From Candidatus Sumerlaeales bacterium (lineage in GTDB: Bacteria; Sumerlaeota; Sumerlaeia; Sumerlaeales; Sumerlaeaceae), in the NCBI GenBank assembly GCA_038243585.1, contig JBBSQY010000053.1, forward strand, positions 1 to 20,688: 20,688 nucleotides of DNA, in the 5' to 3' direction. Below are positions 626 through 17,612 of the stretch, one piece after another. Both the position numbers and the translations under genes were made by a program. Below the pieces are notes generated by a model. The model worked only from the letters and a program-made list of their open reading frames with translations, was not told the DNA's origin and searched no databases. Within the stretch, counting starts at the first letter, position 1. Each line of letters opens with the position of its first letter.

Positions 626-1327
626 TCACTGTTGTTGAACATCAAGTGCGGCCCTCAACAGCGCATTTTCATCAACTCGTTGTTTATAGTCGGGACTCCA
701 GAAAGCGTATTTTATGACGCCGTTGCGGTCAATTATGTATGCTGCCGGCACTGGCAGAATATGGTGACTTTCGCCTGAGCTTTTTTCCAGGTCGATAGGG
801 TTTTTAAATGCCAGGTATCGATTTATCGTTCCATCGTCCACGCGAAAGGCCAGTCCGAAGGCGCGAGTCGCCTGCGCAGAACTGTCCGATAACAAGGTAT
901 AGTTAAGCTGATTCTTTTGGGCGGTCTCCCGCAAAAATTGCGGGGCATCGGGAGAAATGGCGACAATTTGGAAGCCCGCGCTTGTCAGATCATCCTCGAT
1001 CGCGGCCATTTTGGCCAGATGGGTGTTGCAGTATGGACACCACCCACCTCTATAAAAGAGAAGTACGGTCGGGCCGGAGCTATAGATGTCGCGCAGGTTT
1101 AACGGCTTTCCGTCCACTGTAAATACTGGAGCCGACGCGGCCTTTTCGCCCACTTTGAGCGGTTTGACTTCGCTTGGGGTGGTCGCGATATCGGAGGCGG
1201 CATCGGTAATCGTCAGGGCAGGCTGCGCGGATAATTGTGTTGTTTGAGCATTGAAACAAAATGCAGATGCTGATAAAATTAAAGCCGCACCTGACTTCTT
1301 AATAAAATTAGGGCATAATAAGGACAC
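626..1327 (-). CDS. Exported peroxiredoxin-like (AhpC/TSA family) redoxin
   Basis: FYRGGWCPYC motif, VAISPD, LLSD and LPVPAAYIIDRNGVI. N-terminal signal-peptide-like segment. GTG start with AGGAG Shine-Dalgarno 7 nt upstream. Confidence 0.88.
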   Translation of the reverse strand: MSLLCPNFIKKSGAALILSASAFCFNAQTTQLSAQPALTITDAASDIATTPSEVKPLKVGEKAASAPVFTVDGKPLNLRDIYSSGPTVLLFYRGGWCPYCNTHLAKMAAIEDDLTSAGFQIVAISPDAPQFLRETAQKNQLNYTLLSDSSAQATRAFGLAFRVDDGTINRYLAFKNPIDLEKSSGESHHILPVPAAYIIDRNGVIKYAFWSPDYKQRVDENALLRAALDVQQQ

Positions 1328-1544
1328 GATGTTTCTCCTATGGTAAGGTTCTTTTTTACGGACAAGACAAGAACGACACTAAGTAACGATGTACGAGTTT
1401 TGTGCCATATCCGAGAATTCCTGCCAAGTTACTTTCTCATGTCTTTATGGGTTGCAATAGCGTCCGGGGATCACATGAAGTCTCTTCCACATCCGTGTAT
1501 TTGCTTCCTGCAGGCATAATAGTTTTATTTTAAAAAGTTAGACA

Positions 1545-2318
1545 ATGATCAGAAAAACCTGGAACACAGACAAATGGCTTCTTACGGCGCAGGCGGAACA
1601 CGCACGCCTTTCGGCGATCATTGCCGCGTCGTGGCACTTCCCCAGTGATAAACCTTCCGATGAAGTATTTAAATCTGTGCTGACCCATGATGACGGATGG
1701 AGAGAGATAGACGCTGTTCCAAGTGTAAAGACAAACGGGGATCCGCAAAGTTTTGATGAAGTAAAACTTGAGGTTGCTACGCCAATCTATACGCGTTCCA
1801 TCGAAATGCGTAAAGACGCCGGGCATCTTTACGGGGCGTCGCTAGTCGCAGGCCATTTTCTTTATCTTGTGGAAAACGCTGATCTTAGTAGAGCCTCCAC
1901 AGCGGACGCAAAGGCGGCCGGCCAGTTTTTAGCGCGCCAGCGGGCAAACCTGAATTTGATGAAAACGACTATTGAACAAAGAGATGGTGCTGATCAGCTT
2001 CTAAATTACGATCTCGATTTACGTTTTTTACAGGTTTGCGATTATCTTTCACTGCTTCTATGCACGGATTTTACTGGCGAGGAAATCATTGAAGATGTGC
2101 CTTACCTGCATAAGGGCGATGCTCTGACAGTGACCCGTCCGGGTTCCGGCTTGGCGTTATGCCTTTCTCCACTCCCTTTTAAGAAAAATTTGCGCGATCA
2201 CCTGACGTCATGGACGGTACCATTCATGCCCTACGATTCTACAGATGAGCTCCAATATGCCATGGAAGAAATGAAGACTGTTTCTAACGAGGTCCACCTC
2301 GGCGCGCCCAACTGCTGA
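1545..2318 (+). CDS. DUF3891-like protein (HD-like putative metal-binding protein)
   Basis: N-terminal pattern MIR...LL.AQ.EHARLS..IA..W, then HDDGW and LQVCDYLSLLLC, which match my recollection of the DUF3891 family. Confidence 0.7.
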   Translation: MIRKTWNTDKWLLTAQAEHARLSAIIAASWHFPSDKPSDEVFKSVLTHDDGWREIDAVPSVKTNGDPQSFDEVKLEVATPIYTRSIEMRKDAGHLYGASLVAGHFLYLVENADLSRASTADAKAAGQFLARQRANLNLMKTTIEQRDGADQLLNYDLDLRFLQVCDYLSLLLCTDFTGEEIIEDVPYLHKGDALTVTRPGSGLALCLSPLPFKKNLRDHLTSWTVPFMPYDSTDELQYAMEEMKTVSNEVHLGAPNC

Positions 2319-2390
2319 TTGACACTTGCTTCTCTGTATTATGCCTACCATTAATTGATTTTAGAACTTGCTTAAGGATTTTTGATTATC

Positions 2391-2867
2391 ATGAAGAAAC
2401 CATTTCAAACTGCTTCGTTAAAACTAACTCTAACGATGGCCCTTGCGATTTTTACGCTGATGATGCCTGCGTCACCAGGAAACAGCCGGCCATACGCAAG
2501 TGACCCCAGCCAGTGTAAATTCGGCATCGATGTACCGATGAATTATCGCGGCAAGGAAATGATTTGTCTTTATAATCTTGAGAGGCTGCTAGACGCGAAA
2601 CAGGCATGGGCTAAGGATAACCGCGCGGGCCGGGGCAGTCTGGTCCCAAGTTCGGAATCGCTGGCGCACAACTATTTTAGAGAGTACAAGTTTGGGCGAC
2701 GGACGCCTTGTGATGATGAGACGCAGAAACTGGATGCCTACCGTCCTATTTGCCCATCCGGTGGTCAATATATAGTCGGCAACGTGGGTGAGCGCCCAAA
2801 GTGCAGCTATCACGGAGACTCGCTGCGTGACTATGATCAGCACATTCGCGTGCCGCACACCCATTAG
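2391..2867 (+). CDS. Exported Cys-rich hypothetical protein with a pilin/pseudopilin-like globular domain
   Basis: Signal-peptide-like N-terminus (MKKPFQ...LTMALAIFTLMMPA). Pattern C-x-x-NL..L..AKQAWA..N...CPSGGQY.VG...E.PKCS.HG. Alternative TTG start at 2382. Confidence 0.6.
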   Translation: MKKPFQTASLKLTLTMALAIFTLMMPASPGNSRPYASDPSQCKFGIDVPMNYRGKEMICLYNLERLLDAKQAWAKDNRAGRGSLVPSSESLAHNYFREYKFGRRTPCDDETQKLDAYRPICPSGGQYIVGNVGERPKCSYHGDSLRDYDQHIRVPHTH

Positions 2868-2881
2868 TTCCGGCGTTTACC

Positions 2882-3523
2882 ATGACAAATGACACCCCTG
2901 CCGTAATTGGCGTAATGGCTTCAGGTCGCGGCTCTAATTTTGCCGCGCTGTTGCAACGGCAAACCGAAAACTACTTTCAAAACGCCAAAATTGCGTGCTT
3001 GATTTCCAACCGTCCTGCCGCCCCAGTACTGGATCTGGCTCAGGAGGCGGGCATTGCTGCCTACCCGGTGCCGCCGGGGGATTTCGACTCCCTGGAAGTT
3101 TATGAGCGAGAAATCGTTCGACTCTTTGATCAGCATGAGATAAACTGGCTGGTATTGGCAGGATATATGAAAATAGTCGGGCCAACTATATTGACCAGAT
3201 ATGGCGGCCAAATTATTAATATCCATCCTTCTCTGCTTCCGGCCTTCCCAGGGCTGAATGCCCAGCGGCAAGCCCTTGATTACGGAGTTCGCGTATCCGG
3301 CTGTACTGTGCATTTTGTTGACGACGGACTTGATTCCGGACCTATTATTGCCCAGCGTAGCGTACCTGTTATGCCGGGAGACACCGAAGAAGACCTCTCA
3401 GCACGAATTCTCGTGGAAGAGCATGAACTGTTTCCGCGGTGTGTAAGAGCCATAACCGAATATGCCTGGAAATTGGAGGGACGGCGTGTGGTCTTCGAAG
3501 ACCGCAATCCTGGATCCCCCTGA
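2882..3523 (+). CDS. purN: Phosphoribosylglycinamide formyltransferase
   Basis: ASGRGSNF, LAGYMKI, INIHPSLLPAFPG, GCTVHFVD.GLDSGPII.Q and EH.LFP motifs. Confidence 0.97.
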   Translation: MTNDTPAVIGVMASGRGSNFAALLQRQTENYFQNAKIACLISNRPAAPVLDLAQEAGIAAYPVPPGDFDSLEVYEREIVRLFDQHEINWLVLAGYMKIVGPTILTRYGGQIINIHPSLLPAFPGLNAQRQALDYGVRVSGCTVHFVDDGLDSGPIIAQRSVPVMPGDTEEDLSARILVEEHELFPRCVRAITEYAWKLEGRRVVFEDRNPGSP

Positions 3524-3559
3524 CCCCCATTACTATATTGAAAAGCAGTCAACGCACTT

Positions 3560-4852
3560 ATGATAGAACGTTATTCAACACCGGAAATGAAAGACCTTTG
3601 GAGCGAGCAGGCAAAATTTCAGGCATGGCTTGATGTGGAGCTTGCAGCCTGCGAAGCCTGGACAGCAGTCGGCAAAATATCCGCAGAAGATATGGCGACC
3701 ATTCGCGACAAAGCTGCATTTACGGTGGACCGCATTGAGGAACTGGACAATACTCTCCACCACGACGTCATTGCCTTTACCACTAATTTGGCGGAAAACA
3801 TCGGCCCCGCATCCCGTTTTGTTCACCTTGGCCTTACATCCACGGATGTGGTGGATACGGCACAGGCGCTGCGCCTGCGTCAGGCCGGCGAGCTCATCCT
3901 GGATGAACTCGACAAGCTTATTGAAACATTAAAAACGCTGGCCATTGATCACCGGGGAACGGTTATGATGGGCCGCACTCACGGCGTTCACGCCGAACCT
4001 ATCACCCTGGGTCTTAAATTTCTGGTGACCCACCAGGAAATGTTGCGCAACAAGCGACGCCTTGAGCAAGCGCTGGCAGACGTCGCCGTCGGAAAGATCA
4101 GCGGCGCAGTCGGAACTCACGCCCATACCGGGCCGGCGTTCGAAGAAAAGATTTGCGAACATCTTAACCTAAAACCAGCCGAAGTGGCCACGCAGGTTCT
4201 TCAGCGGGATCGACACGCCGCTTTTGTCGCAGCCATAGCCGTTTGCGGCGGAACTATCGAAAAAATGGCTGTGGAAATTCGCCACCTTCAGCGGACAGAG
4301 GTCCGTGAGCTGGAAGAGCCATTTGCCAAAGGGCAAAAAGGCAGCAGCGCTATGCCTCACAAGCGTAACCCCGTTAAGTGTGAACAACTGACCGGTCTCA
4401 GCCGCCTCCTGCGCGGCTATTCAACGGCCGCTATGGAAAACCAGGCACTCTGGCACGAGCGCGATATCAGCCATTCCAGTGCTGAACGGGTGCTGATTGG
4501 CGACAGTACTACCCTGATTCATTATATGATACGTCTGCTCAACAAGGTGCTTTCCGGTCTGCACGTTTACCCGGAGACCATGCTCTCCAATATGGAAAAG
4601 ACGCGAGGGTTACTTTTTTCACAAAAAACGCTGCTTTCAATCGTTGAAAAGGGTCTAAGCCGTGAAGAGGCTTACGACGTCGTTCAAACCGCTGCCATGG
4701 CAACCTGGGCAGATCCTGACAAAACATTAAAGGCGGAATTGTTGAAAGACAGCCGGAATCCGCTGTCAGAAGCTGAATTGACAGAGCTTATGAACTATAA
4801 GCACTTTCTGAAATATATAGATGATATCTATGCAAGAACCAGTATAGCTTAA
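3560..4852 (+). CDS. purB: Adenylosuccinate lyase
   Basis: MIERYS N-terminus, HDVIAF, VHLGLTSTDVVDTA, GRTHGVHAEP, fumarate-lyase signature GSSAMPHKRNP and WHERDISHSS. Confidence 0.98.
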   Translation: MIERYSTPEMKDLWSEQAKFQAWLDVELAACEAWTAVGKISAEDMATIRDKAAFTVDRIEELDNTLHHDVIAFTTNLAENIGPASRFVHLGLTSTDVVDTAQALRLRQAGELILDELDKLIETLKTLAIDHRGTVMMGRTHGVHAEPITLGLKFLVTHQEMLRNKRRLEQALADVAVGKISGAVGTHAHTGPAFEEKICEHLNLKPAEVATQVLQRDRHAAFVAAIAVCGGTIEKMAVEIRHLQRTEVRELEEPFAKGQKGSSAMPHKRNPVKCEQLTGLSRLLRGYSTAAMENQALWHERDISHSSAERVLIGDSTTLIHYMIRLLNKVLSGLHVYPETMLSNMEKTRGLLFSQKTLLSIVEKGLSREEAYDVVQTAAMATWADPDKTLKAELLKDSRNPLSEAELTELMNYKHFLKYIDDIYARTSIA

Positions 4853-4937
4853 AATTTTTCGGTTCTTAACAATGATTGGCACCATCCAGCGTCCAATGTT
4901 ATAAACTTGTCAGAGATTTATGGAGAGGGCCCTAAAC

Positions 4938-6671
4938 GTGTTTCAAAAACTTGCCACTATCGCGCTACTGCTATGTGCTTCCGCCGGCTTTGCCGAGGTC
5001 GTCACCATTGAGAGCTTTGAAAACGACGGGGATCCTGCCAACTGGCAGGTAAACGTTACGGCTGGCCACACGCTAAACGCCACTGTCACAGGCCCTGTGC
5101 CGGAGTTTGTAACAACAGATGTGACAGAGGGAATTCTGGCGGGCAAATTCCTTGCCACCTGGAACCAGACAACCAGCCCGACAGCCGAAAATGTGTATGA
5201 TGTGGATGGACCTTCAGTCTACTGGGCGGTGCGCTATAATGTCAATGCGCCCGCTTCGCTCCCCAATAACTCCATTGCGACCGCTGATGGACTTTTGCAG
5301 GCGGATATAACAAATCTTTCTTCCGCCCCCGTCTGGGTCGCGTTAGCGGTAGATAGTGTTGTCAGTTCACAGCTTGAACGTGGCCCGCTGCACCTGATCG
5401 ACGCTGGATCATCAGCCACTTATGTCTGGGATTTCGCGACAACGCCGCCGGTTGGTTTTGACACGGGTGATGGTGTATTCAGTGGCGATGTCCAGCGGCT
5501 GAAGTCGCTGCTTGTCTACACGCCGGTCCAACCGACAGATTCGACGCTGGCGCTTACGGTGGATAATATCCGCAACGGCAACAGCCCTCCAATTCCGACC
5601 GTCGATCCTCCGAAAATTCTTTCTCTTACTCAGGGCGTCAGCCCTGGCGAAGCTGTATTAACATGGGCTGCTGAGTCTGACCCCAATGTCGCTGCTTATA
5701 GTATTTTTGTCGCCACGGACGTAAACTTCGGAACTCCGGAAATTAACCGTCTCACATTTCCACAAAATCCTGTTACCACGGTGCCTGCGGCGCAGCGTTC
5801 TGTAGTATTGTCAGGTTTGCCTACCGATCGAAGTGTCTATGTTAAAGTCGGCGACAGCTCCTCGTTTAAGGACGAAGGAGAGGACGTGTTTAATCCAGTA
5901 TTTACCGCGTTTCTAAATGCCGATGGAGCGCCTCCTCAGGATCGAATTGTCATTGATCACAACCTGCTGGCCTATGACGATCTAAATTTTGTTAAATACG
6001 GGTATGCCCATGCAGCTGTATATACAGCACAGGCGCTGGCCGGTTTAGACCGGACGTTCGACTCTGTTTCTGCGGAAGCGGTTGATACCGGTGTCGCTTC
6101 ATTAACTCCCGCCCCGGACGGAATTGTTATCTGGAGCAATCTAAAAGATGGCGAAATCGCCGGCACTTCTCTTTCCTCACCATCCCGATTGGCGATTTCC
6201 AACTTTCTTGCTAATGACGGAAAACTTATAATCTCAGGGTCGGCGTTAGCTCAGGATTTAGGAGCATCCCCTGGAGTCCTTGAAGCGCTGTTCCAGGCGT
6301 CGCTCCAGACCGGCAACATAGGCGTATCAGTTATCAAGCCGATCGCTCCGCTGACTACCGCCCCGTTGTCTACGGGCCTCAACCCGGCAACAAACGCCGT
6401 TGCCTATTTCAGCAGCGACAATGACGGCATCTTGCCCGCCGGCGGCAGCGCTTCCCTTGCAACTTACAATAATATACCAGCAGTAAATTCTGTCGCGGCC
6501 GTCGGGAAGGAAAACTCCTTTGTATTTCTAGGGTTTGCTTTCGAAACCGTTGGCAACTCCTCCGGGCCTTCTGCCAGTGCGCTGGCCCGCGAGAATTTGA
6601 TGAACGACATGGTAAATTATCTTAACGGAATCGGCGAAACGGACGCAAAAGACTGGCAGCTGTTCAACTAA
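4938..6671 (+). CDS. Secreted/surface protein: beta-rich N-domain, FN3-like middle, alpha/beta C-domain, terminal DWQLF motif
   Basis: Signal peptide (FQKLATIALLLCASAGFA|EVV). GTG 4938 follows GGAGAGG (alternative ATG at 4920). Pro-rich linker SPPIPTVDPP; FN3-like AVLTW...Y.I...LSGLP...VYVKV; C-terminus ETDAKDWQLFN. Confidence 0.7.
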   Translation: MFQKLATIALLLCASAGFAEVVTIESFENDGDPANWQVNVTAGHTLNATVTGPVPEFVTTDVTEGILAGKFLATWNQTTSPTAENVYDVDGPSVYWAVRYNVNAPASLPNNSIATADGLLQADITNLSSAPVWVALAVDSVVSSQLERGPLHLIDAGSSATYVWDFATTPPVGFDTGDGVFSGDVQRLKSLLVYTPVQPTDSTLALTVDNIRNGNSPPIPTVDPPKILSLTQGVSPGEAVLTWAAESDPNVAAYSIFVATDVNFGTPEINRLTFPQNPVTTVPAAQRSVVLSGLPTDRSVYVKVGDSSSFKDEGEDVFNPVFTAFLNADGAPPQDRIVIDHNLLAYDDLNFVKYGYAHAAVYTAQALAGLDRTFDSVSAEAVDTGVASLTPAPDGIVIWSNLKDGEIAGTSLSSPSRLAISNFLANDGKLIISGSALAQDLGASPGVLEALFQASLQTGNIGVSVIKPIAPLTTAPLSTGLNPATNAVAYFSSDNDGILPAGGSASLATYNNIPAVNSVAAVGKENSFVFLGFAFETVGNSSGPSASALARENLMNDMVNYLNGIGETDAKDWQLFN

Positions 6672-6716
6672 CAGAAACTCTTGCCATTCCCATGTTCCGG
6701 TGGGAAATCAGGGGTC

Positions 6717-8168
6717 ATGCAGACTGATAAATTAACCCTTGTTGTTATCTTTCAGGACGATGACTACTCGTCCTGCGTCCGGTACATTTTTGATTTGTTT
6801 AGTCGCGTACATGGCTATGCTTGCCATTTTGTTGCGGATAATCAGGATAGGATGGCAACGGCGGATGTCGTCATCAAGTATGGCGAGATGACGCCTTTTA
6901 GCGACTCAGGCTCTGACACTCCTACCATAAACGTTCATCGCTGCCGGTTTTTTAGCGATGAGTTTGGCAAGTCCAACAAGCCGCCGGAAAACTTCAGTCT
7001 CCTTTTGACAGCCTCAAAAGCAACCGCATTTATGACGATGGCCCAACGAACCGCTACTAGCGCCACTATTGTGCACGATGTTATTGCTGCCGCGTTTTAC
7101 CTGCTCAGTGGTTACCACGACTGGACCACACAGTTGCGGGATCCGGCAGGGCGTGTCCTTTCAAGCCAGATCGCTCTGCCTGTCGAGACTTGGGACATGC
7201 CTCACGTAAACCACTGGTTTCGACAGCTTGATGAGCTCGTTCGTTCGTTACATCGGCGTGAGACAGAGACCACACAGCCCGCTATGACGCCCGCTGGCCT
7301 TCAGACGATATGCCTTACCCATGACGTAGATCTTCTGCGCAAATACCGTCCCGGCAACCTTGGACGCCACCTGACGCGGACGGCCAAAGCCAATCCCGCG
7401 CAAATGCTTAGTGAAACACGGCGAGCCGCACGGGTCTTGTCTGGCCGAGAGCGTGACCCATACGACAGCATCGATAGCCTGTATACAGTAAAAGAGCGCA
7501 TTTCCGCTCCCTCAACATTTTTCTTTCTTGGCAGCAAACCAGGTGGCCACAATGGGGACTACCAGGCAGGCGGTCGCGAGGCCCGAAATCTCATGACCCG
7601 GGCCCGAGGCTTCGGAGATGAACTGGCGTTCCACGGCAGCTGGGAATCGTCCGATTCCGCTGAGCTCACGCGCGATGAAAAAGAAAAGGTTCAGCAGGCC
7701 GTGCAAACTCCAATCCAAGGGGCTCGTCAGCATTATCTGCGTTTTGAAACCCCTGACACTTGGAAACACCTTGCCTCTGCTGGTATCCGATATGACTCTT
7801 CGGGCGGTTTTCCCGATCGCTGCGGGTTTAAATACGGGTGGTCCGGTTGCTTTTACCCGTTTGATCTGGACGCCATGCACCCGCTGCCGATCCTTGAAAT
7901 TCCGCTCGTATGCATGGACATAACCTTGTCATCGTATGAAAAAATTCCGGCTGAACTCGCGCTGGAAAGGCTTTCTACCCTCCTCGACAGTGCATGTGAC
8001 GGAGTGCCAGGCGGCGCTTTTGTGTTCCTCTGGCATAACGTAATGGGCGACCGAGTCGCCTATCCCGGCTATTTTGACACTTTCGAATACTTCTTTTCTG
8101 TGGCATCCGGCAGCGCTCGCTATATCACCATGGCGCAGCTTTGCGATGAGTTTGAGTCTCCTCGTTGA
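6717..8168 (+). CDS. Polysaccharide deacetylase family protein (CE4-like/NodB fold) with N-terminal extension
   Basis: CLTHDVD, STFFFL, ELAFHGS, GARQHYLRF, GIRYDSS.GF, LEIPLVCMD and FLWHN motifs. Alternative TTG start at 6681. Confidence 0.85.
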   Translation: MQTDKLTLVVIFQDDDYSSCVRYIFDLFSRVHGYACHFVADNQDRMATADVVIKYGEMTPFSDSGSDTPTINVHRCRFFSDEFGKSNKPPENFSLLLTASKATAFMTMAQRTATSATIVHDVIAAAFYLLSGYHDWTTQLRDPAGRVLSSQIALPVETWDMPHVNHWFRQLDELVRSLHRRETETTQPAMTPAGLQTICLTHDVDLLRKYRPGNLGRHLTRTAKANPAQMLSETRRAARVLSGRERDPYDSIDSLYTVKERISAPSTFFFLGSKPGGHNGDYQAGGREARNLMTRARGFGDELAFHGSWESSDSAELTRDEKEKVQQAVQTPIQGARQHYLRFETPDTWKHLASAGIRYDSSGGFPDRCGFKYGWSGCFYPFDLDAMHPLPILEIPLVCMDITLSSYEKIPAELALERLSTLLDSACDGVPGGAFVFLWHNVMGDRVAYPGYFDTFEYFFSVASGSARYITMAQLCDEFESPR

Positions 8169-10976: not shown

Positions 10977-13421
10977 TTGAACAAGGTCTTACTGTACAAG
11001 GTCGATCCTATAACCTCTGACTTACTTCGTAGTTCTAACGACAAATTGGCTGAGTTTCAGCCAGTAGCAAGTCCAGACGAAGTGGCAACGATAGTAGCAG
11101 ACCAATCCCATGTGGTGGACGCGCTGGTCATCGGCACCTTCGTTGCGGATCCGGTCCGAGTGGCTCAGCAAACTTACGCGGTCAGCCGAGATGTAGGCGT
11201 AATGTTGCTGACAGAGACAATCCATTTAGATCAACTGACCAGGGCAGTTCAGTTTTCTCCGCTCCTTGGAAACGGTACCGTGTGTGTAGCCGTGGAGGAC
11301 ACAGCAAAAGTGCTGGAAGCATTTTATCAGACTCTTACGGCGGTGCGACGTCGACGTACACATCGAGCAACTATCGCTGCGGTCGACACGCAGATTCAGT
11401 CACAACTGCCTCCTATTCTGCATGGAACCTACGTTGAGCATCTGCTACACCACGCGCCCATAGGGGTGGTGGCAACAGATGAATTTGGAAAAGCCCTGGC
11501 GTGGAACACATTTGCAACAACGCTCACTGGCATTGTCGAGCGTGACGCATTAGGTGCTAGATTTCCCAGCCTTTATCCGGAGCCCTGGAGATCTCAGCTC
11601 GAGGCATTGATTACCAACGTCTCGACCAGCCCGCTTGACGGCTGGCCACCTCTTATAGTGGAAAACGCCACTATGGCCGTAGAAATGAAGATATCGCTGC
11701 TTGAGGGAGCTAAAGACAACCATCGTTTAATAATCCTCATGCGAGATATCACTATTCAACTGCGGGCAGAGCGCGAAGCCGCTGAGGCCACGCGTTTGTT
11801 AAAAAGCACCAACGAGGAACTGAGGAAAGCTCGTGATCGAGCCTTTGATGCAAGCCGCGCCAAAAGTACTTTTCTAGCCAATATGAGTCACGAACTTCGT
11901 ACTCCATTAAACGCGATTATCGGCTATGCTGAGATGCTGCAGGAGCAGGCACAGGATGGTTTACATGATGACCTTCCGGCTGACCTTCGTCGGATAAGCT
12001 CTGCGGGACGTCACCTTCTAATGCTGATCGGTGAAATTCTTGACATATCAAAAATCGAAGCTGGAAAGATGGAACTTTATATCAGCCGCTTCGACTTAGG
12101 GACATTAGTGGATGAAGTCACCGCGACAGTTCAGCCGCTGATTGAAAAGAACAGGAACCGGTTAATGACCACCTGCGATCAAGACCTTGGCCTGATGCAA
12201 ACGGATGAAACTAAGGTTCGCCAGATACTTTTCAACCTGCTCAGTAACGCTGCAAAGTTTACTGAAAACGGTACAATTAAGTTGTCTGTCGACCGGGAGA
12301 CAACCGATCAAAACAATCCAATCGATCGCGGCGACAAAGTGGATACAATAGTTATACAGGTATCTGATAGCGGCATTGGAATGTCTGAACAGCAAATTGA
12401 ATCGCTTTTCCGTGAGTTCAGCCAGGTCGACCCGTCATCAACGCGTCGCCACGGCGGAACAGGGCTTGGGCTGGCAATAAGCAGACGATTCAGCCAAATG
12501 ATGGGAGGGGACGTTAACGTCACCAGCACCCCTGGAACTGGCTCTATTTTCACAGCAAAGCTACCTATGATGGTTCCGGGTACTACGGATATTCCGTCTG
12601 AAAATATTGGTTTACTTGAAGCCGGCTTCAGTCGGGAGGTGGGATCGTCTTCTTATTCTCCAAATACCATTCTTGTCATTGACGATGACCCAACCGTGCA
12701 CCAACTGATGCGCCCCCTGTTGGAGAAAGAAAGATTTCATGTCGTTAGCGCCATGGATGGCAGACGCGGAATTGAACTCGCCAGGGAGATACATCCTCGT
12801 GCCATTATTTTAGACATTTTAATGCCAGAATTAGACGGTCGGTCAGTTCTGACTGAAATTAAAGCCGACCAAAAGCTTGCTGATATTCCTGTTATAATTG
12901 TCAGCCTTGTTGACCACAAAAACCTTGGCTTTGCTCTCGGGGCAACCGATTACCTGACTAAGCCATTTGAGCGCGAACGCTTGCTTTCCATATTACGCAG
13001 GTATCAATGCGACCTGCACACCTGCAGGGTTCTGCTTCTTGAGGATGATCTCGATACAAGGGATCTGCTGAACCGGCTGCTTATAGCTGCCGGATGCTCA
13101 ACGGTTACCGCCACTAACGGCCGGGAGGGACTTAGAGCTATGGAAGCCAGTATACCTGATATAATCCTTCTCGACCTTATGATGCCCGAAATGGACGGCT
13201 TCGAGTTTTTGGAAAGGGTACGTCAGGAGCCACTGTGGCGAAACACCCCGATAATCGTAATCACTGCCATGGAACTTAACGACGACGACCGCCATAACTT
13301 AAACGGAGAGGTTCAGCGAGTTCTTTATAAGGGCCACTACACTCGCGATGATCTTTTGCAGGAAATCTGCGACACGGTGGCGAGTCTCCCTCGCTTGCCG
13401 GAAAACGTTGAACACTCATAG
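10977..13421 (+). CDS. Cytoplasmic hybrid sensor histidine kinase: pseudo-receiver-like domain, PAS, HisKA, HATPase and two REC domains
   Basis: PAS ([13 protein letters not shown]...WN...RDIT). H-box [20 protein letters not shown]-box [11 protein letters not shown]1 DSGIG, G2 GGTGLGL. REC1 VIDDD/LDILMP/TKP and REC2 LLEDD/LDLMMP. No TM helix. TTG start 3 nt after the upstream stop. Confidence 0.95.
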
Positions 13422-14222: not shown

Positions 14223-17200
14223 TCAGTAAACGTCCACGATGTTAGCGTCATCTTCCTCGTCACTGCGCGGCCTCTTACTACTAACAACATTTTCATACCT
14301 CAGCGGCGACAGCGCGTGAAGCAATGAAAGATCCATTTCCGCCTCCGCAACTATGCGAATTCGATCTTCCGGCAAAATCTTTTTTAGCGCGTAGTAGAAT
14401 GGTGGACTGAAAAATATCGGCGTTTTTTCAATTCCCCTGGCATGCCACCGGGACATTGCTCCATCCGGGACTTGTTGCAGGCTAACCGTCGTCCCCTGAC
14501 CACGGTAATAAGATATCAGATTCTTGATCAGACGCAGCGTACGAGTGTCTTCGCCCGCCAGATCCAGTTCAAGACCTTTCACATGGCGGCTCATCTCCTG
14601 CACCATTCGCAGCGTAAAAGCCGTAAAGCCTTTTACATAAACTTCATCTTTGCGGCGCTGAACTGTGCCGCCAATAAGAACAGGTGCGCTCGCATGAAGA
14701 GCCTGATCATACAGCTTGCTAATCTTGACCGGCATCGTAACCACATGACCTTCAAGATCAAGCAGTATATGCTCCTTCTCTTCAACCAGTGGGCTGCCTG
14801 ATTCCACGTGATCCAGAAAGCCCGCCACATGAACTTCCTTGCCCACCATGCGCGGGACAAGATCTCCAGGTGCCAGCGCCCGACATTTATCTACCAGGTC
14901 TTTATAAAGCAATAGCTGGTCAAACCCGATACAGTAGCCCGCCGCGGCTATCTCGTTTCGAATGATCTCCTGCAAGGGCAGTTCCGCCGTGTCCGGAGGT
15001 TCAACGGAGACCATAGTGGAGGGACGATCATCCTGCTCATCGAACAAACTTGGCGAGCCTGCGTCCCGTCGCGCAATCTCCACATCATGTTCCACGAGAT
15101 AGAGCATCTGGCTGCGCCGATACCCGAAACCATCCAGAGCCCCTGCCTTCACAAGGTTGGTCAGAACGCGCGTGTTTATTAATTTTGAATCTGTGCGCCG
15201 CACCAGATCCATAAGGTCGTTATAATCGCCGCCCTTGCGAGTCTCGTTCAATTCCGTGTAAGCCCGATGCCCTACGCCTCCAACTACCATCAGACCAGTG
15301 CGAATCGCCTTATGCACCTGGCTGAACTCGTATACGCTGAGGTTAATATCCGGCGGAAGAATCTTAAGTCCCATTTGCTTGGCTTCGCGAAGGATAACCG
15401 TAAACTTACGTCGGTTTTTAAATGTGTGGGTCAGAAGTGACGCCATGAAACTCATGGGGTAATGCGCTTTCACGTAGGCACAACGATACGTAAGCAGACA
15501 TTCGGGCACGTGTTCGCGCACGTCACTGTCCCCCGCCGCATTTGGAGAACGTTCCAGCCCTTTTACTTTGAGTAATTCCATAAACGTTCGCGGCCTGTGA
15601 GCCCGTAGCAGAGACTTCAGTGTAATACTGCTAAAGGGTTCAATGCCGTTGGTTAATCCGCGACACAACAAGTCATACGTCGCGTGGTCATCCATCGGAA
15701 TGCGGTCCGGATCGAAGGCAGAGTTCTCTTCTTTCCGCACCCAGTTCGCCGCTGAATCCAGGATGTTTAACACCGGGTCCGTCATCACCGTAATTCGGGG
15801 AATATGAAACAAATCCAGGGCGTTGCCATCCATCTGCGTTACAAGCTGATCGTCTACTGGCACCCGCGGCGTGAGGTGGTTTAAGTTTTCTGCGGAAATG
15901 GCAAACTGGTTTTCGTCTAGCGACAGATCGCGCGGGCGTGGCAAAAGCCGAGACAGCAGAAAGTTCTCAAATTCCGCGCTGGGAAGCGCCACACCGTCGA
16001 CCTTACCGGGGAAAAAGTCTTCCAGCGGGGAATCCACCGTCAGATTCCGATACTCAGGCAAGTCTGTTTCATGGTCCGTCCGGCCAGGCTTAGCGTACAG
16101 CCATGCCCTTACTTCACGTCCCAGTCCACTCGATTGCCACCAGGTAAATTTGCCGACCGCGCTACAAAAATCATGGCCGAAGGTTTCTCGCATAAAGTCA
16201 TGCAGAGCCTCAATATGGCGCAAGGGCATCTCTACGGATAAGGCGGGTTCGGCTTCGTTATTGTCTCTGGAAAACCCGAGGAATCTCATTTTATAGTCGA
16301 GGGGATTGATCCGCGTAATGCCCAGAATGTAAGCGACCAGGCTGGTAATCATATCGCCCCGACCAACGCCCACGCTGATCTTGTTTTTCCGAACAAACTG
16401 GGCGATGTTCCACAGCAACAGCATATTGTTTGAAAGGCCGTGAGTTTTTATGTAGTCAAACTCTTCGTTTAGCCGGTTTTTAATATCCGGCGAGAGCTCA
16501 ACAAAACGTGCTCGTGCTTCGCGAAAGGCCAGATCCCACAGAAAGCTGTCTGCGTCGAAACCTCGAACGAAGTCATGAACCGGGAACCGGCGCTTTTGAT
16601 AGTTCAGCTGAAAGGAACAACGATCTGCCACTTCCTCGGTCGCATACAACGCCCGCGGATATTTCAAAAATCGATCGCGCATCTGCATGCCGCTGGCAAC
16701 ATGCTGAGAATGGGCAGTATCCCGCACCGCCTGGAACTGAAGAAAGCTCGGAAAGCGACCCCGCATAAGAAAATCGCGAGCAAGGCTGTCTTCCGGTCGC
16801 AGGTAGCACACGGCGTTTGTGGCCACGCATCTCACATTTAAAAAGTTGCTCAGCGCAAAGATTTGGTCATTGATCTGCTTCTGGCGCGAGACCTCCACAT
16901 CTTCCAGCTGAAGAATCAGGTTGTCTCTCCCGAAAATTCTTGCCAGTTTGCGTATGTAATTTTCTGTCTCTTCGACGCGGTTGTTTAGTAGGAGATGGTA
17001 GAGCTCAGAAGAAGAACTGCCGGTGAGCGCGATCAGGCCGCCTGCGTGTTTTTCCAGCGATTCCAAATCGATCCGGGCCTTGCCCCGCTTGCTCTGGGCG
17101 TGGCTGATGTTTACCAGACTGACCAGATTTCGATAGCCCGCGTCGGTTTCCGCTAACAGGACAATCCGGAACGGCTGATCATTGGTCATTTCTGATTGGG

Positions 17201-17414
17201 CAATAGGCACTATGGTCATATCGCAACCAATGACTGGACGTATGCCCGAATCTCGACATGCCTGGCAAAAAGACGCGACGCCGGCAAGCGTGTCCTGGTC
17301 CGTCAAGCCGAGCGCCCGCATCCCCAAGCGCTCTGCATAACGCACCAGATCACGGACTGATGCTACTCCATCAGGTGAAAAATGGCTGTGTACATGAAGA
17401 TGGACAAAATCCAA
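14223..17414 (-). CDS. dnaE: DNA polymerase III alpha (DnaE) homolog, predicted catalytically inactive
   Basis: PHP (FVHLHVHSHFS.DG, ALGLTD, GYRNL..L), palm (VGVGRG...SLVAYILGIT.INP), YVKAHYP..FMASLL, ILPPDIN.S, HhH (GVG..A), LVKAGALD, OB-fold and CTD. Uninterrupted 1063-aa ORF, but the PDIDxD and KxD motifs are replaced. Confidence 0.9.
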   Translation of the reverse strand: MDFVHLHVHSHFSPDGVASVRDLVRYAERLGMRALGLTDQDTLAGVASFCQACRDSGIRPVIGCDMTIVPIAQSEMTNDQPFRIVLLAETDAGYRNLVSLVNISHAQSKRGKARIDLESLEKHAGGLIALTGSSSSELYHLLLNNRVEETENYIRKLARIFGRDNLILQLEDVEVSRQKQINDQIFALSNFLNVRCVATNAVCYLRPEDSLARDFLMRGRFPSFLQFQAVRDTAHSQHVASGMQMRDRFLKYPRALYATEEVADRCSFQLNYQKRRFPVHDFVRGFDADSFLWDLAFREARARFVELSPDIKNRLNEEFDYIKTHGLSNNMLLLWNIAQFVRKNKISVGVGRGDMITSLVAYILGITRINPLDYKMRFLGFSRDNNEAEPALSVEMPLRHIEALHDFMRETFGHDFCSAVGKFTWWQSSGLGREVRAWLYAKPGRTDHETDLPEYRNLTVDSPLEDFFPGKVDGVALPSAEFENFLLSRLLPRPRDLSLDENQFAISAENLNHLTPRVPVDDQLVTQMDGNALDLFHIPRITVMTDPVLNILDSAANWVRKEENSAFDPDRIPMDDHATYDLLCRGLTNGIEPFSSITLKSLLRAHRPRTFMELLKVKGLERSPNAAGDSDVREHVPECLLTYRCAYVKAHYPMSFMASLLTHTFKNRRKFTVILREAKQMGLKILPPDINLSVYEFSQVHKAIRTGLMVVGGVGHRAYTELNETRKGGDYNDLMDLVRRTDSKLINTRVLTNLVKAGALDGFGYRRSQMLYLVEHDVEIARRDAGSPSLFDEQDDRPSTMVSVEPPDTAELPLQEIIRNEIAAAGYCIGFDQLLLYKDLVDKCRALAPGDLVPRMVGKEVHVAGFLDHVESGSPLVEEKEHILLDLEGHVVTMPVKISKLYDQALHASAPVLIGGTVQRRKDEVYVKGFTAFTLRMVQEMSRHVKGLELDLAGEDTRTLRLIKNLISYYRGQGTTVSLQQVPDGAMSRWHARGIEKTPIFFSPPFYYALKKILPEDRIRIVAEAEMDLSLLHALSPLRYENVVSSKRPRSDEEDDANIVDVY

Positions 17415-17612
17415 ACGATTCCCAAACCTAGTTCATAATCTATATTTAAATGCAGAGCAGGAGTCGCTCACGGCAAGCATAAACATTTGCCGCGCCCTAT
17501 TGTGCGTTTTTTCTTTTGCGTATGGAATGATAGTTTTTCTTGCCCCGCTGGTCCAGGTTGTCACACAGATAATTCAAAGTCGCAAATCATGATCACAGAG
17601 GCCCAACTACCA

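Follow-up and report, generated by a model that had tools for sequence, protein, structure and literature searches.

Can a bacterium keep a full-length homolog of its replicative DNA polymerase that no longer polymerises, and for what? The question is raised by a gene in a 20,688-nt stretch of DNA from a Candidatus Sumerlaeales bacterium (contig JBBSQY010000053.1, positions 1 to 20,688; hereafter the window), which encodes a 1063-amino acid paralog of DnaE, the α subunit of DNA polymerase III. The original prediction, made from the letters of the window, held that this protein cannot polymerise DNA and has a non-catalytic role; our analysis supports both points, and the particular role that it put forward, that of a scaffold, regulator or decoy, is one that we infer. 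We conclude, with a rough probability of 0.62, that the window gene is a polymerase-dead DnaE paralog and encodes a working non-catalytic protein, probably one that binds the sliding clamp and DNA. Two observations carry this conclusion. First, the dead paralog is a near-universal chromosomal gene of Candidatus Sumerlaeota. Second, purifying selection on it is as strong as on the replicative DnaE1. Constraint like that on a replicase and near phylum-wide retention, despite the dead sites, indicate that the protein has some other job.

The window protein is a DnaE homolog without the catalytic aspartates of the polymerase

The reading frame of the window gene (Table 1) is free of stops across 3.2 kb, and its Pfam matches follow the DnaE domain order, as originally described: PHP (residues 5-170), DNA_pol3_alpha (residues 292-534, a weak match of 79.6 bits), the first half only of the finger domain (residues 549-626, corresponding to profile positions 2-79 of 166), and HHH_6 (residues 682-770). 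The DnaE-type C-family homology of the protein is seen in a phmmer search of the PDB, with E = 2.8e-79 against Taq α. An AlphaFold2 model computed from a 55-row family alignment has a predicted local distance difference test score of 87.4 and a predicted template modeling (TM) score of 0.83. When this model was used as a query, the best Foldseek matches (E = 1e-57) were full-length Taq, M. tuberculosis, and E. coli α, with PolC next and with TM scores of up to 0.68-0.69 for Taq and M. tuberculosis DnaE1. Pfam, the AlphaFold2 model and Foldseek together confirm that the helix-hairpin-helix (HhH), oligonucleotide/oligosaccharide-binding (OB) and C-terminal (CTD) domains are retained. We note that the superfamily model TIGR00594 was the only NCBIfam dnaE model passed (441.5 bits for a cut-off of 434.35); the equivalogs PRK05673 (458 bits for a cut-off of 1002) and PRK06826 (462 for 1260) were both missed.

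The residues D401, D403, and D555 of E. coli α are the catalytic triad of C-family polymerases. We mapped the corresponding positions by aligning residues 339-645 of the window protein with HMMER to E. coli α (2hnh) and Taq α (3e0d). In the palm, P400-D401-F402-D403-V404-D405-F406 of E. coli α lies opposite P390-A391-L392-S393-V394-E395-M396, and D555 lies opposite a threonine (Table 1). The Taq alignment, in which the triad columns are D463, D465, and D618, agrees. Both alignments bear out the triad loss that had been read from the palm and KxDxLGL motifs, for which the coordinates first given are exact. The substitutions originally reported in the GRGS, HAAG and FERF motifs are likewise seen in the structure-sequence alignment. 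Three further features had gone without mention: a deletion in the fingers, decay of the PHP site and a glutamate, E395, retained in the palm. The deletion removes ∼100-107 residues, placing residues 623-638 opposite Taq 699-821, and takes with it the RPGP, YQEQ, RRAMGKK, and GYGFNKSHS segments. The lost fingers and palm motifs are those that hold the incoming nucleotide. The PHP proofreader site comprises nine metal ligands, HHDHEH[C/H]DH, in the account given in the accessible text of PMC12926913; the window protein keeps three of them (H5, H7, and D15), and the six lost columns read Q40, D65, R83, S133, A201, and C203. Judged by these replacements, the window protein very probably lacks polymerase activity; a two-metal polymerase of the known C-family type appears to be ruled out, and with the PHP site apparently also lost here, both DNA synthesis and proofreading would be gone.

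The dead paralog is present in nearly all Candidatus Sumerlaeota

A word-indexed search with the window protein returned 37 clusters aligned over the full length at 31-100% identity, and an exhaustive HMMER search added many further representatives at 25-37%; full-length conservation thus reaches down to 25% identity. The 268 aligned homologs split into 75 without and 193 with the triad, with no intermediates, and all 75 triad-less sequences, two of which are fragments, also lack the YQEQ column. Absence of the triad also held for 24 of 24 members examined. To count genomes, we ran a profile of 24 members over 75 genomes of Candidatus Sumerlaeota (BRC1). A dead-type copy was detected in 68, with a match that bridges the deletion junction in one stretch (genome G028 was counted by fragments); a more divergent full-length dead-type open reading frame (ORF) in G040 and fragments in G039, of the same genus, bring the total to ∼70 of 75. 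The profile search found no dead-type copy in G002, G048, G059, G070, and G074, which are 66-87% complete. In all 47 copies taken from 47 other genomes, the triad, HAAG and the fingers segment are missing. This segment is also absent from all 68 full-length members, and the nucleotide-pocket motifs are replaced or deleted throughout the family. The loss of the aspartates is therefore shared by orthologs throughout the phylum (75/75 and 47/47), as would be expected under the original prediction.

We also conducted a pattern scan for loci outside the phylum. All 14 Sumerlaeota loci in it were dead-type, and none of the 65 loci from other phyla was: all of these carry KxD[FL]LG, and 60 also carry PDxDxD, the other five being partial ORFs. 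Because the patterns were biased to the dead family and the scan covers the best 80 loci only, absence outside the phylum is likely, short of proof. In the ESM Atlas, a cluster of 109 members goes by the name "hypothetical protein" and has Sumerlaeota as its commonest taxon, and database names of members range from "PHP domain-containing protein [Candidatus Sumerlaeaceae]" to "DNA polymerase III alpha subunit" and "hypothetical protein." With names as mixed as these, annotation-based polymerase counts will be wrong for the phylum.

The source assembly (3.43 Mb, 99 contigs, 89.7% complete; the window is its contig C53) contains three DnaE-type genes: DnaE1, a DnaE2-like gene and the window gene. 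The canonical dnaE that was to be looked for elsewhere in the genome was found at G000:C13:67372-70863 and is complete in its motifs, its nine PHP ligands and its OB domain.

The dead paralog is under purifying selection

We estimated the ratio of nonsynonymous to synonymous substitution rates (dN/dS) by the Nei-Gojobori method on codon alignments of four unsaturated genome pairs. The values for the dead paralog and DnaE1, respectively, were 0.164 and 0.175 for G025/G024, 0.185 and 0.177 for G025/G023, 0.150 and 0.155 for G024/G023, and 0.115 and 0.098 for G006/G005. The dN/dS below 1 that the original prediction expected was thus obtained (0.115-0.185), on par with DnaE1 of the same pairs. 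Within the genus of the source organism, where dS is saturated, the dead gene has a dN of 0.11-0.14 and DnaE1 one of 0.13-0.15. In genus g2, where dS is also saturated, the dead copy is the faster of the two (63.5% identity compared with 81% for DnaE1). Further, the ORF is intact in most of the ∼70 genomes, and the suggestion that retention of an intact frame reflects selection holds up. We conclude that the dead paralog is almost certainly functional and under selection.

Conserved residues are retained in the DNA- and clamp-holding parts

To compare constraint along the protein, we selected the columns with ≥90% conservation among 192 canonical homologs and scored them in the 68 full-length dead members. 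In the β-binding/HhH domain, 13 of 17 such columns are kept at ≥80%, and 2 are kept in ≤20% of members. The corresponding numbers are 13 and 39 of 68 for palm and thumb, 6 and 30 of 38 for the fingers, 19 and 8 of 47 for PHP, and 3 and 1 of 5 for OB and CTD. Canonical-type constraint therefore sits on the parts that hold duplex DNA and the clamp, which favors a clamp- and DNA-bound non-catalytic subunit.

The sequence SPSLFD of the window protein aligns with the internal clamp-binding motif of canonical DnaE, which in DnaE1 of the same genome is QSNLFD. According to the accessible text of Timinskas 2014 (PMC3919608), the clamp consensus QL[S/D]LF follows (HhH)2, positions 1, 4, and 5 weigh most, and DnaE2 and DnaE3 retain positions 4-5 only. 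Among 47 orthologous genes of the dead family, positions 4-5 are [LFM]F in 42, and column entropies of 1.4, 0.5, and 1.7 bits (the first two at positions 4-5) compare with ∼3 bits in the flanking linker. In the AlphaFold2 model, residues 787-800 form a low-confidence loop, as expected of a linear motif. A complex prediction of same-genus DnaN (L082) with residues 700-860 (score 0.15, mark 0.32) carries weight neither way. The motif leads us to lean, by a little, toward binding of the β clamp by the dead paralog.

The family has also acquired constraint of its own: 33 columns are at least 80% conserved among its members and <30% in canonical DnaE. These include D281, F282, R284, D287, S290, and W293, which form a cluster at 281-293, and P1004, around which the family form of the CTD motif is FF[SC]PP[FL]Y. 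In relatives at ≥ ∼50% identity, an acidic run followed by [IV]VD[VAMED]Y makes up the C terminus, which is absent in distant members. This acidic tail of the closer relatives brings to mind the acidic docking tips found at the C terminus of proteins such as SSB. In the mechanism that we propose, the protein would dock on the β sliding clamp via the retained internal xxx[LF]F motif and would grip duplex DNA via (HhH)2. Held on clamp and DNA at sites of replication or repair, it would be a structural or regulatory subunit. It might, for example, occupy or hand over clamps or bridge partners through the new conserved CTD surface.

Roles in PHP chemistry or in the PolY-DnaE2 system

Alternatively, the dead polymerase scaffold could carry a PHP domain that works as a nuclease or phosphoesterase, as a 3'-5' exonuclease (a stand-alone proofreader) or a pyrophosphatase that the clamp and DNA parts deliver to DNA. 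Most members keep the HxH...D ligands; the deep branches L012-L014 and L021 have 8/9 PHP ligands, and L019 and P0034 have all nine (HHD-H-E-H-C-D-H). The accessible part of PMC12926913 also describes PolX proteins in which the PHP site is conserved although the polymerase is dead. However, the window copy has only the three ligands named above, retention among the 68 full-length members is low for five of the ligands (6-38%; fourth-ligand His 29%, sixth His 6%, Cys 6%, final D/H pair 37%/38%), and in lineages L030-L033, L051, L052, and L034-L047, even HxH is gone. Because the ligands are lost in most lineages, PHP chemistry is not the function for which the family is kept; at most, it is ancestral or limited to branches, and we consider this explanation improbable. 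The few deep branches with 8-9 of the nine ligands suggest that the polymerase site died before the PHP site.

A further possibility is that the dead paralog serves as the accessory hub of an error-prone PolY-DnaE2 system, as an ImuB-like adaptor with a C-family fold; ImuB is itself a dead polymerase that acts as a clamp-binding hub, as stated in the accessible text of PMC12926913. The source genome has such a system: the start of the DnaE2-like gene (C2:29347-32919), in which PDIDIDF, KIDLLG, GRGS, and YQED are intact, overlaps by 4 nt the end of a 403-amino acid Y-family polymerase gene with IMS domains. Approximately 40 nt upstream of this PolY-DnaE2 operon (L059:7345-12119, reverse strand), near L059:12144-12159, lies the palindrome TAGAAC-N4-GTTCTA, a putative Cheo-box-like SOS operator and LexA site; AGAAC-N4-GTTCT occurs 9 times in the source genome, with ∼3 expected. 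In contrast, no GAAC-N4-GTTC palindrome was found upstream of the dead gene, and the extended form occurs nowhere on its contig. The dead gene lies on a different contig from the DnaE2-like and Y-family polymerase genes, in keeping with the earlier statement that the gene is not in an imuAB cassette. In genome G060 (C132, L174), a dead-type and a DnaE2-like gene are convergent and 40 nt apart (the pair occupies 1030-4602 on the forward strand and 4642-7998 on the reverse strand), an adjacency that was seen in G060 alone among the genomes examined. A DnaE2-type gene, detected as a second strong PF07733 match, is present in only 21 of 75 genomes, whereas the dead paralog is present in ∼70, and families f7, f8, f13, and f15 lack DnaE2 but have the dead copy. 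Overall, we regard a dedicated role in the PolY-DnaE2 system as unlikely.

Observations that weigh against a clamp- and DNA-bound non-catalytic role

We note several observations that count against the reading of the window protein as a non-catalytic clamp- and DNA-binding subunit. First, the carboxylate of E395 stands at the E. coli D405 column and is kept in 56 of the 68 full-length family members. Other acidic residues at the metal sites had been named as a finding that would undo the original prediction; this is partly touched, in that one acidic residue is left in the palm strand. Second, archaeal PolB2 offers a cautionary case, as told in the accessible parts of two papers: inactivation was predicted for it (PMC2527604), but one member has since been reported to work as a translesion extender (PMC8764526).

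Third, two genomes of family f14 appear to have the dead copy only. Canonical DnaE1 (PF07733 at ≥290 bits) was detected in 72 of the 75 phylum genomes, and the three without a match are G059 (66% complete, with no DnaE-type match at all) and the f14 genomes G042 (87% complete) and G043 (93% complete, 60 contigs). In the latter two, searches with PF07733, the source genome's DnaE1 protein and TIGR00594 found no canonical DnaE1, DnaE2, or PolC, only the dead copy (G042:C33:9245-11647, L035; G043:C28:61788-64853, L034). Both genomes have PolA and a B-family polymerase, which is also present in G036 (family f13), and G043 has dnaN. The finding that the gene is the only dnaE of its genome, which was to speak against the original prediction, is thus absent from the source genome and present, as far as canonical matches go, in two f14 relatives. 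If real, the lack of a canonical DnaE in f14 would be hard to square with a purely accessory role; the sober explanation is a shared binning gap. No synteny around dnaE1 was seen between families f13 and f15.

A protein that is still a DNA (or other nucleotidyl) polymerase, with a non-canonical active site, would fit these three points, i.e. the conserved E395, the PolB2 precedent and the f14 genomes in which the dead copy is the sole C-family homolog found. However, two of the three catalytic Asp columns are without a conserved acidic residue in every lineage, with T, R, H, N, I, and others at the D555 column; the GRGS Ser, the FERF Glu and Arg and HAAG are gone; and the absence of the fingers segment is common to all full-length members. 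We therefore regard residual polymerase activity of this kind as very unlikely.

The remaining points concern the clamp motif, the gene's surroundings and its integrity. Q is found at position 1 of the clamp-type motif in only 10 of 47 genes, and the motif is missing in 5. No shared neighbor was found among 74 flanking ORFs of 10 distant loci. Three orthologs among the ∼70 are interrupted: G020:C14 (L050) is split into two ORFs, G045:C16 (L171) has its N terminus in another frame, and G010:C300 (L173) has a stop near the N terminus. All genomes are uncultured metagenome-assembled genomes, in which such interruptions may be sequencing errors or real lineage-specific decay, and our reading as a whole rests on their sequences and on prediction. 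The interruptions and the longer branches than those of DnaE1 in the tree would suit a neutrally decaying duplicate (a pseudogene in waiting) or an annotation artefact, an explanation that is scarcely credible given that a dN/dS of 0.12-0.19, at the level of DnaE1, excludes neutral decay, that the 3.2-kb frame is unbroken in the window and in the great majority of genomes, and that the structure prediction is confident and conservation extends over the full length to 25% identity.

Evolutionary origin of the dead family

In a FastTree phylogeny of 115 sequences rooted on DnaE2, all 38 dead representatives group in a single clade (support 100, long stem of 0.78) that falls outside the DnaE1 clade, and 14 of the 15 Sumerlaeota DnaE1 sequences form a clade of their own. 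An IQ-TREE phylogeny of 50 sequences agrees on the placement of the dead clade outside DnaE1. Long-branch effects bear on all trees of the dead family, and in the approximately unbiased test, a grouping of the dead clade with Sumerlaeota DnaE1 was not rejected (difference in log-likelihood of 33.6, p = 0.21). This means that a duplication of DnaE1 at the level of the phylum, followed by acceleration, is compatible with the data. Tentatively, and with somewhat less than even confidence, we suggest that this is the first recognised dead lineage of the C family, in effect a fifth DnaE-type group, which arose at or before the base of Sumerlaeota and has been kept in nearly all members to serve the replication or repair machinery as a structural subunit that rides on the clamp.

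Features of the window

The coordinates of the features of the window gene are collected in Table 1. The gene stands alone, divergent from a gene for a GFO/IDH/MocA oxidoreductase and convergent with a 96-amino acid ORF of no assigned function. Gene neighbors vary across 11 relatives; only two related loci share a GNAT gene upstream of the dead gene. Neither PF02768 nor TIGR00663 detected dnaN in the source assembly. Relatives of the same genus have dnaN, and its absence here probably reflects a gap in the assembly. Otherwise, the window looks ordinary and includes genes for a hybrid histidine kinase with two receiver domains, a purN-like formyltransferase, adenylosuccinate lyase, a DUF3891 protein and an acyl-CoA dehydrogenase; ordinary genes are cited at 10977-13421, 2882-4852, and 1545-2318, all on the forward strand. 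Several ORFs of 161-583 amino acids, among them those at 2382-2867 and 4920-6671, are without Pfam matches.

Table 1. Features of the window gene and its upstream region, in window coordinates
Feature	Residues	Position	Strand	Basis or remark
Whole gene, polymerase-dead DnaE paralog	1063 aa	14223..17414	-	TTG start; stop at 14223-14225
Divergent intergenic region, 72 nt		17415..17486	.	shared with the GFO/IDH/MocA oxidoreductase gene; no GAAC-N4-GTTC palindrome
PHP domain	5-170	16905..17402	-	Pfam
GRGDMITS, replaces GRGSAAGS	351-358	16341..16364	-	
FLGF, replaces FERF	378-381	16272..16283	-	
PALSVEM, replaces PDxDxDF; E. coli D401 to A391, D403 to S393, D405 to E395	390-396	16227..16247	-	HMMER vs 2hnh
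DENQ, replaces HAAG	500-503	15906..15917	-	
RITVMTD, replaces KxDFLGL; E. coli D555 to T542	540-546	15777..15797	-	HMMER vs 2hnh
Fingers-deletion junction	∼619-638	15501..15560	-	
(HhH)2/β-binding domain	682-770	15105..15371	-	canonical invariant residues retained
SPSLFD, column of the canonical internal clamp-binding motif	787-792	15039..15056	-	conservation island
OB-fold region	∼860-951	14562..14837	-	β strands in model; AlphaFold2, Foldseek
Family-specific CTD motif FFSPPFYYALKKILPE	1001-1016	14367..14414	-	
Extreme C-terminal IVDVY, behind an acidic stretch	1059-1063	14226..14240	-	closer relatives only

Relation to known systems and implications

The dead paralog has the same order of parts as DnaE1 of Taq (2hpi/3e0d), M. 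tuberculosis (7pu7), and E. coli (2hnh/5fku), i.e. PHP, palm, thumb, fingers, (HhH)2, clamp-type motif, OB, and CTD, but it is without the triad, GRGS, FERF, HAAG, and ∼100 fingers residues, scores below the equivalog cut-offs, and belongs to a separate clade with a long stem. Like DnaE2/ImuC, it is a second DnaE-type gene that accompanies DnaE1, its PHP site is degenerate, and its clamp motif is weak; however, DnaE2 keeps every catalytic motif, sits in the PolY operon, and forms a different clade. By analogy, the dead paralog may be likened to ImuB, which in the accessible text of PMC12926913 is a full-length polymerase homolog that has lost its catalytic carboxylates, keeps a clamp-type motif and is retained by selection. 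Unlike ImuB, it has a C-family rather than a Y-family fold, is unlinked to DnaE2, and is distributed independently of it. Archaeal PolB2 (PMC2527604) and the dead C-terminal module of eukaryotic Pol epsilon (PMC2669801) are, in the parts of these papers that were accessible, conserved clades with disrupted sites and other roles; they belong to another polymerase family and another domain of life, and the dead paralog has, in addition, lost the whole fingers segment. PolX1 with an inactivated polymerase site and PolX-like proteins, described in the same part of PMC12926913, also persist after loss of the polymerase site, but there, the PHP exonuclease site is conserved, whereas it has decayed in most members of the dead family.

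Surveys of the C family recognise PolC and DnaE1-3 and, in their accessible text, discuss inactivation only for PHP or DnaQ (PMC3919608 and PMC12926913, the latter a 2026 survey of 3070 complete genomes). Within that text and the literature searched, no polymerase-dead C-family group is described. One supplement of PMC12926913 contains no entry for Sumerlaeota, Sumerlaea, or BRC1, and its other supplements could list outliers. The Sumerlaeota genome paper PMC8092238 contains neither "polymerase" nor "dnaE," and no literature joining Sumerlaeota with DNA polymerase III was found.

Structural roles are known for dead polymerase homologs of the Y (ImuB), B (PolB2 and the Pol epsilon module), and X families, and such proteins have held a key place in work on mutasomes and the eukaryotic replisome. 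If our reading is true, the window gene would be to the bacterial C family what ImuB and the dead Pol epsilon module are to the Y and B families. Taken to its extreme, this reading would have family f14 lack a canonical DnaE, with a replisome that combines the dead scaffold with a polymerase of another family. A dead α would be a natural separation-of-function version of the replicase, with binding of the clamp, DNA, and partners but without catalysis, and a protein under replicase-like constraint without polymerisation would add a new kind of component to the bacterial replisome or repair machinery.

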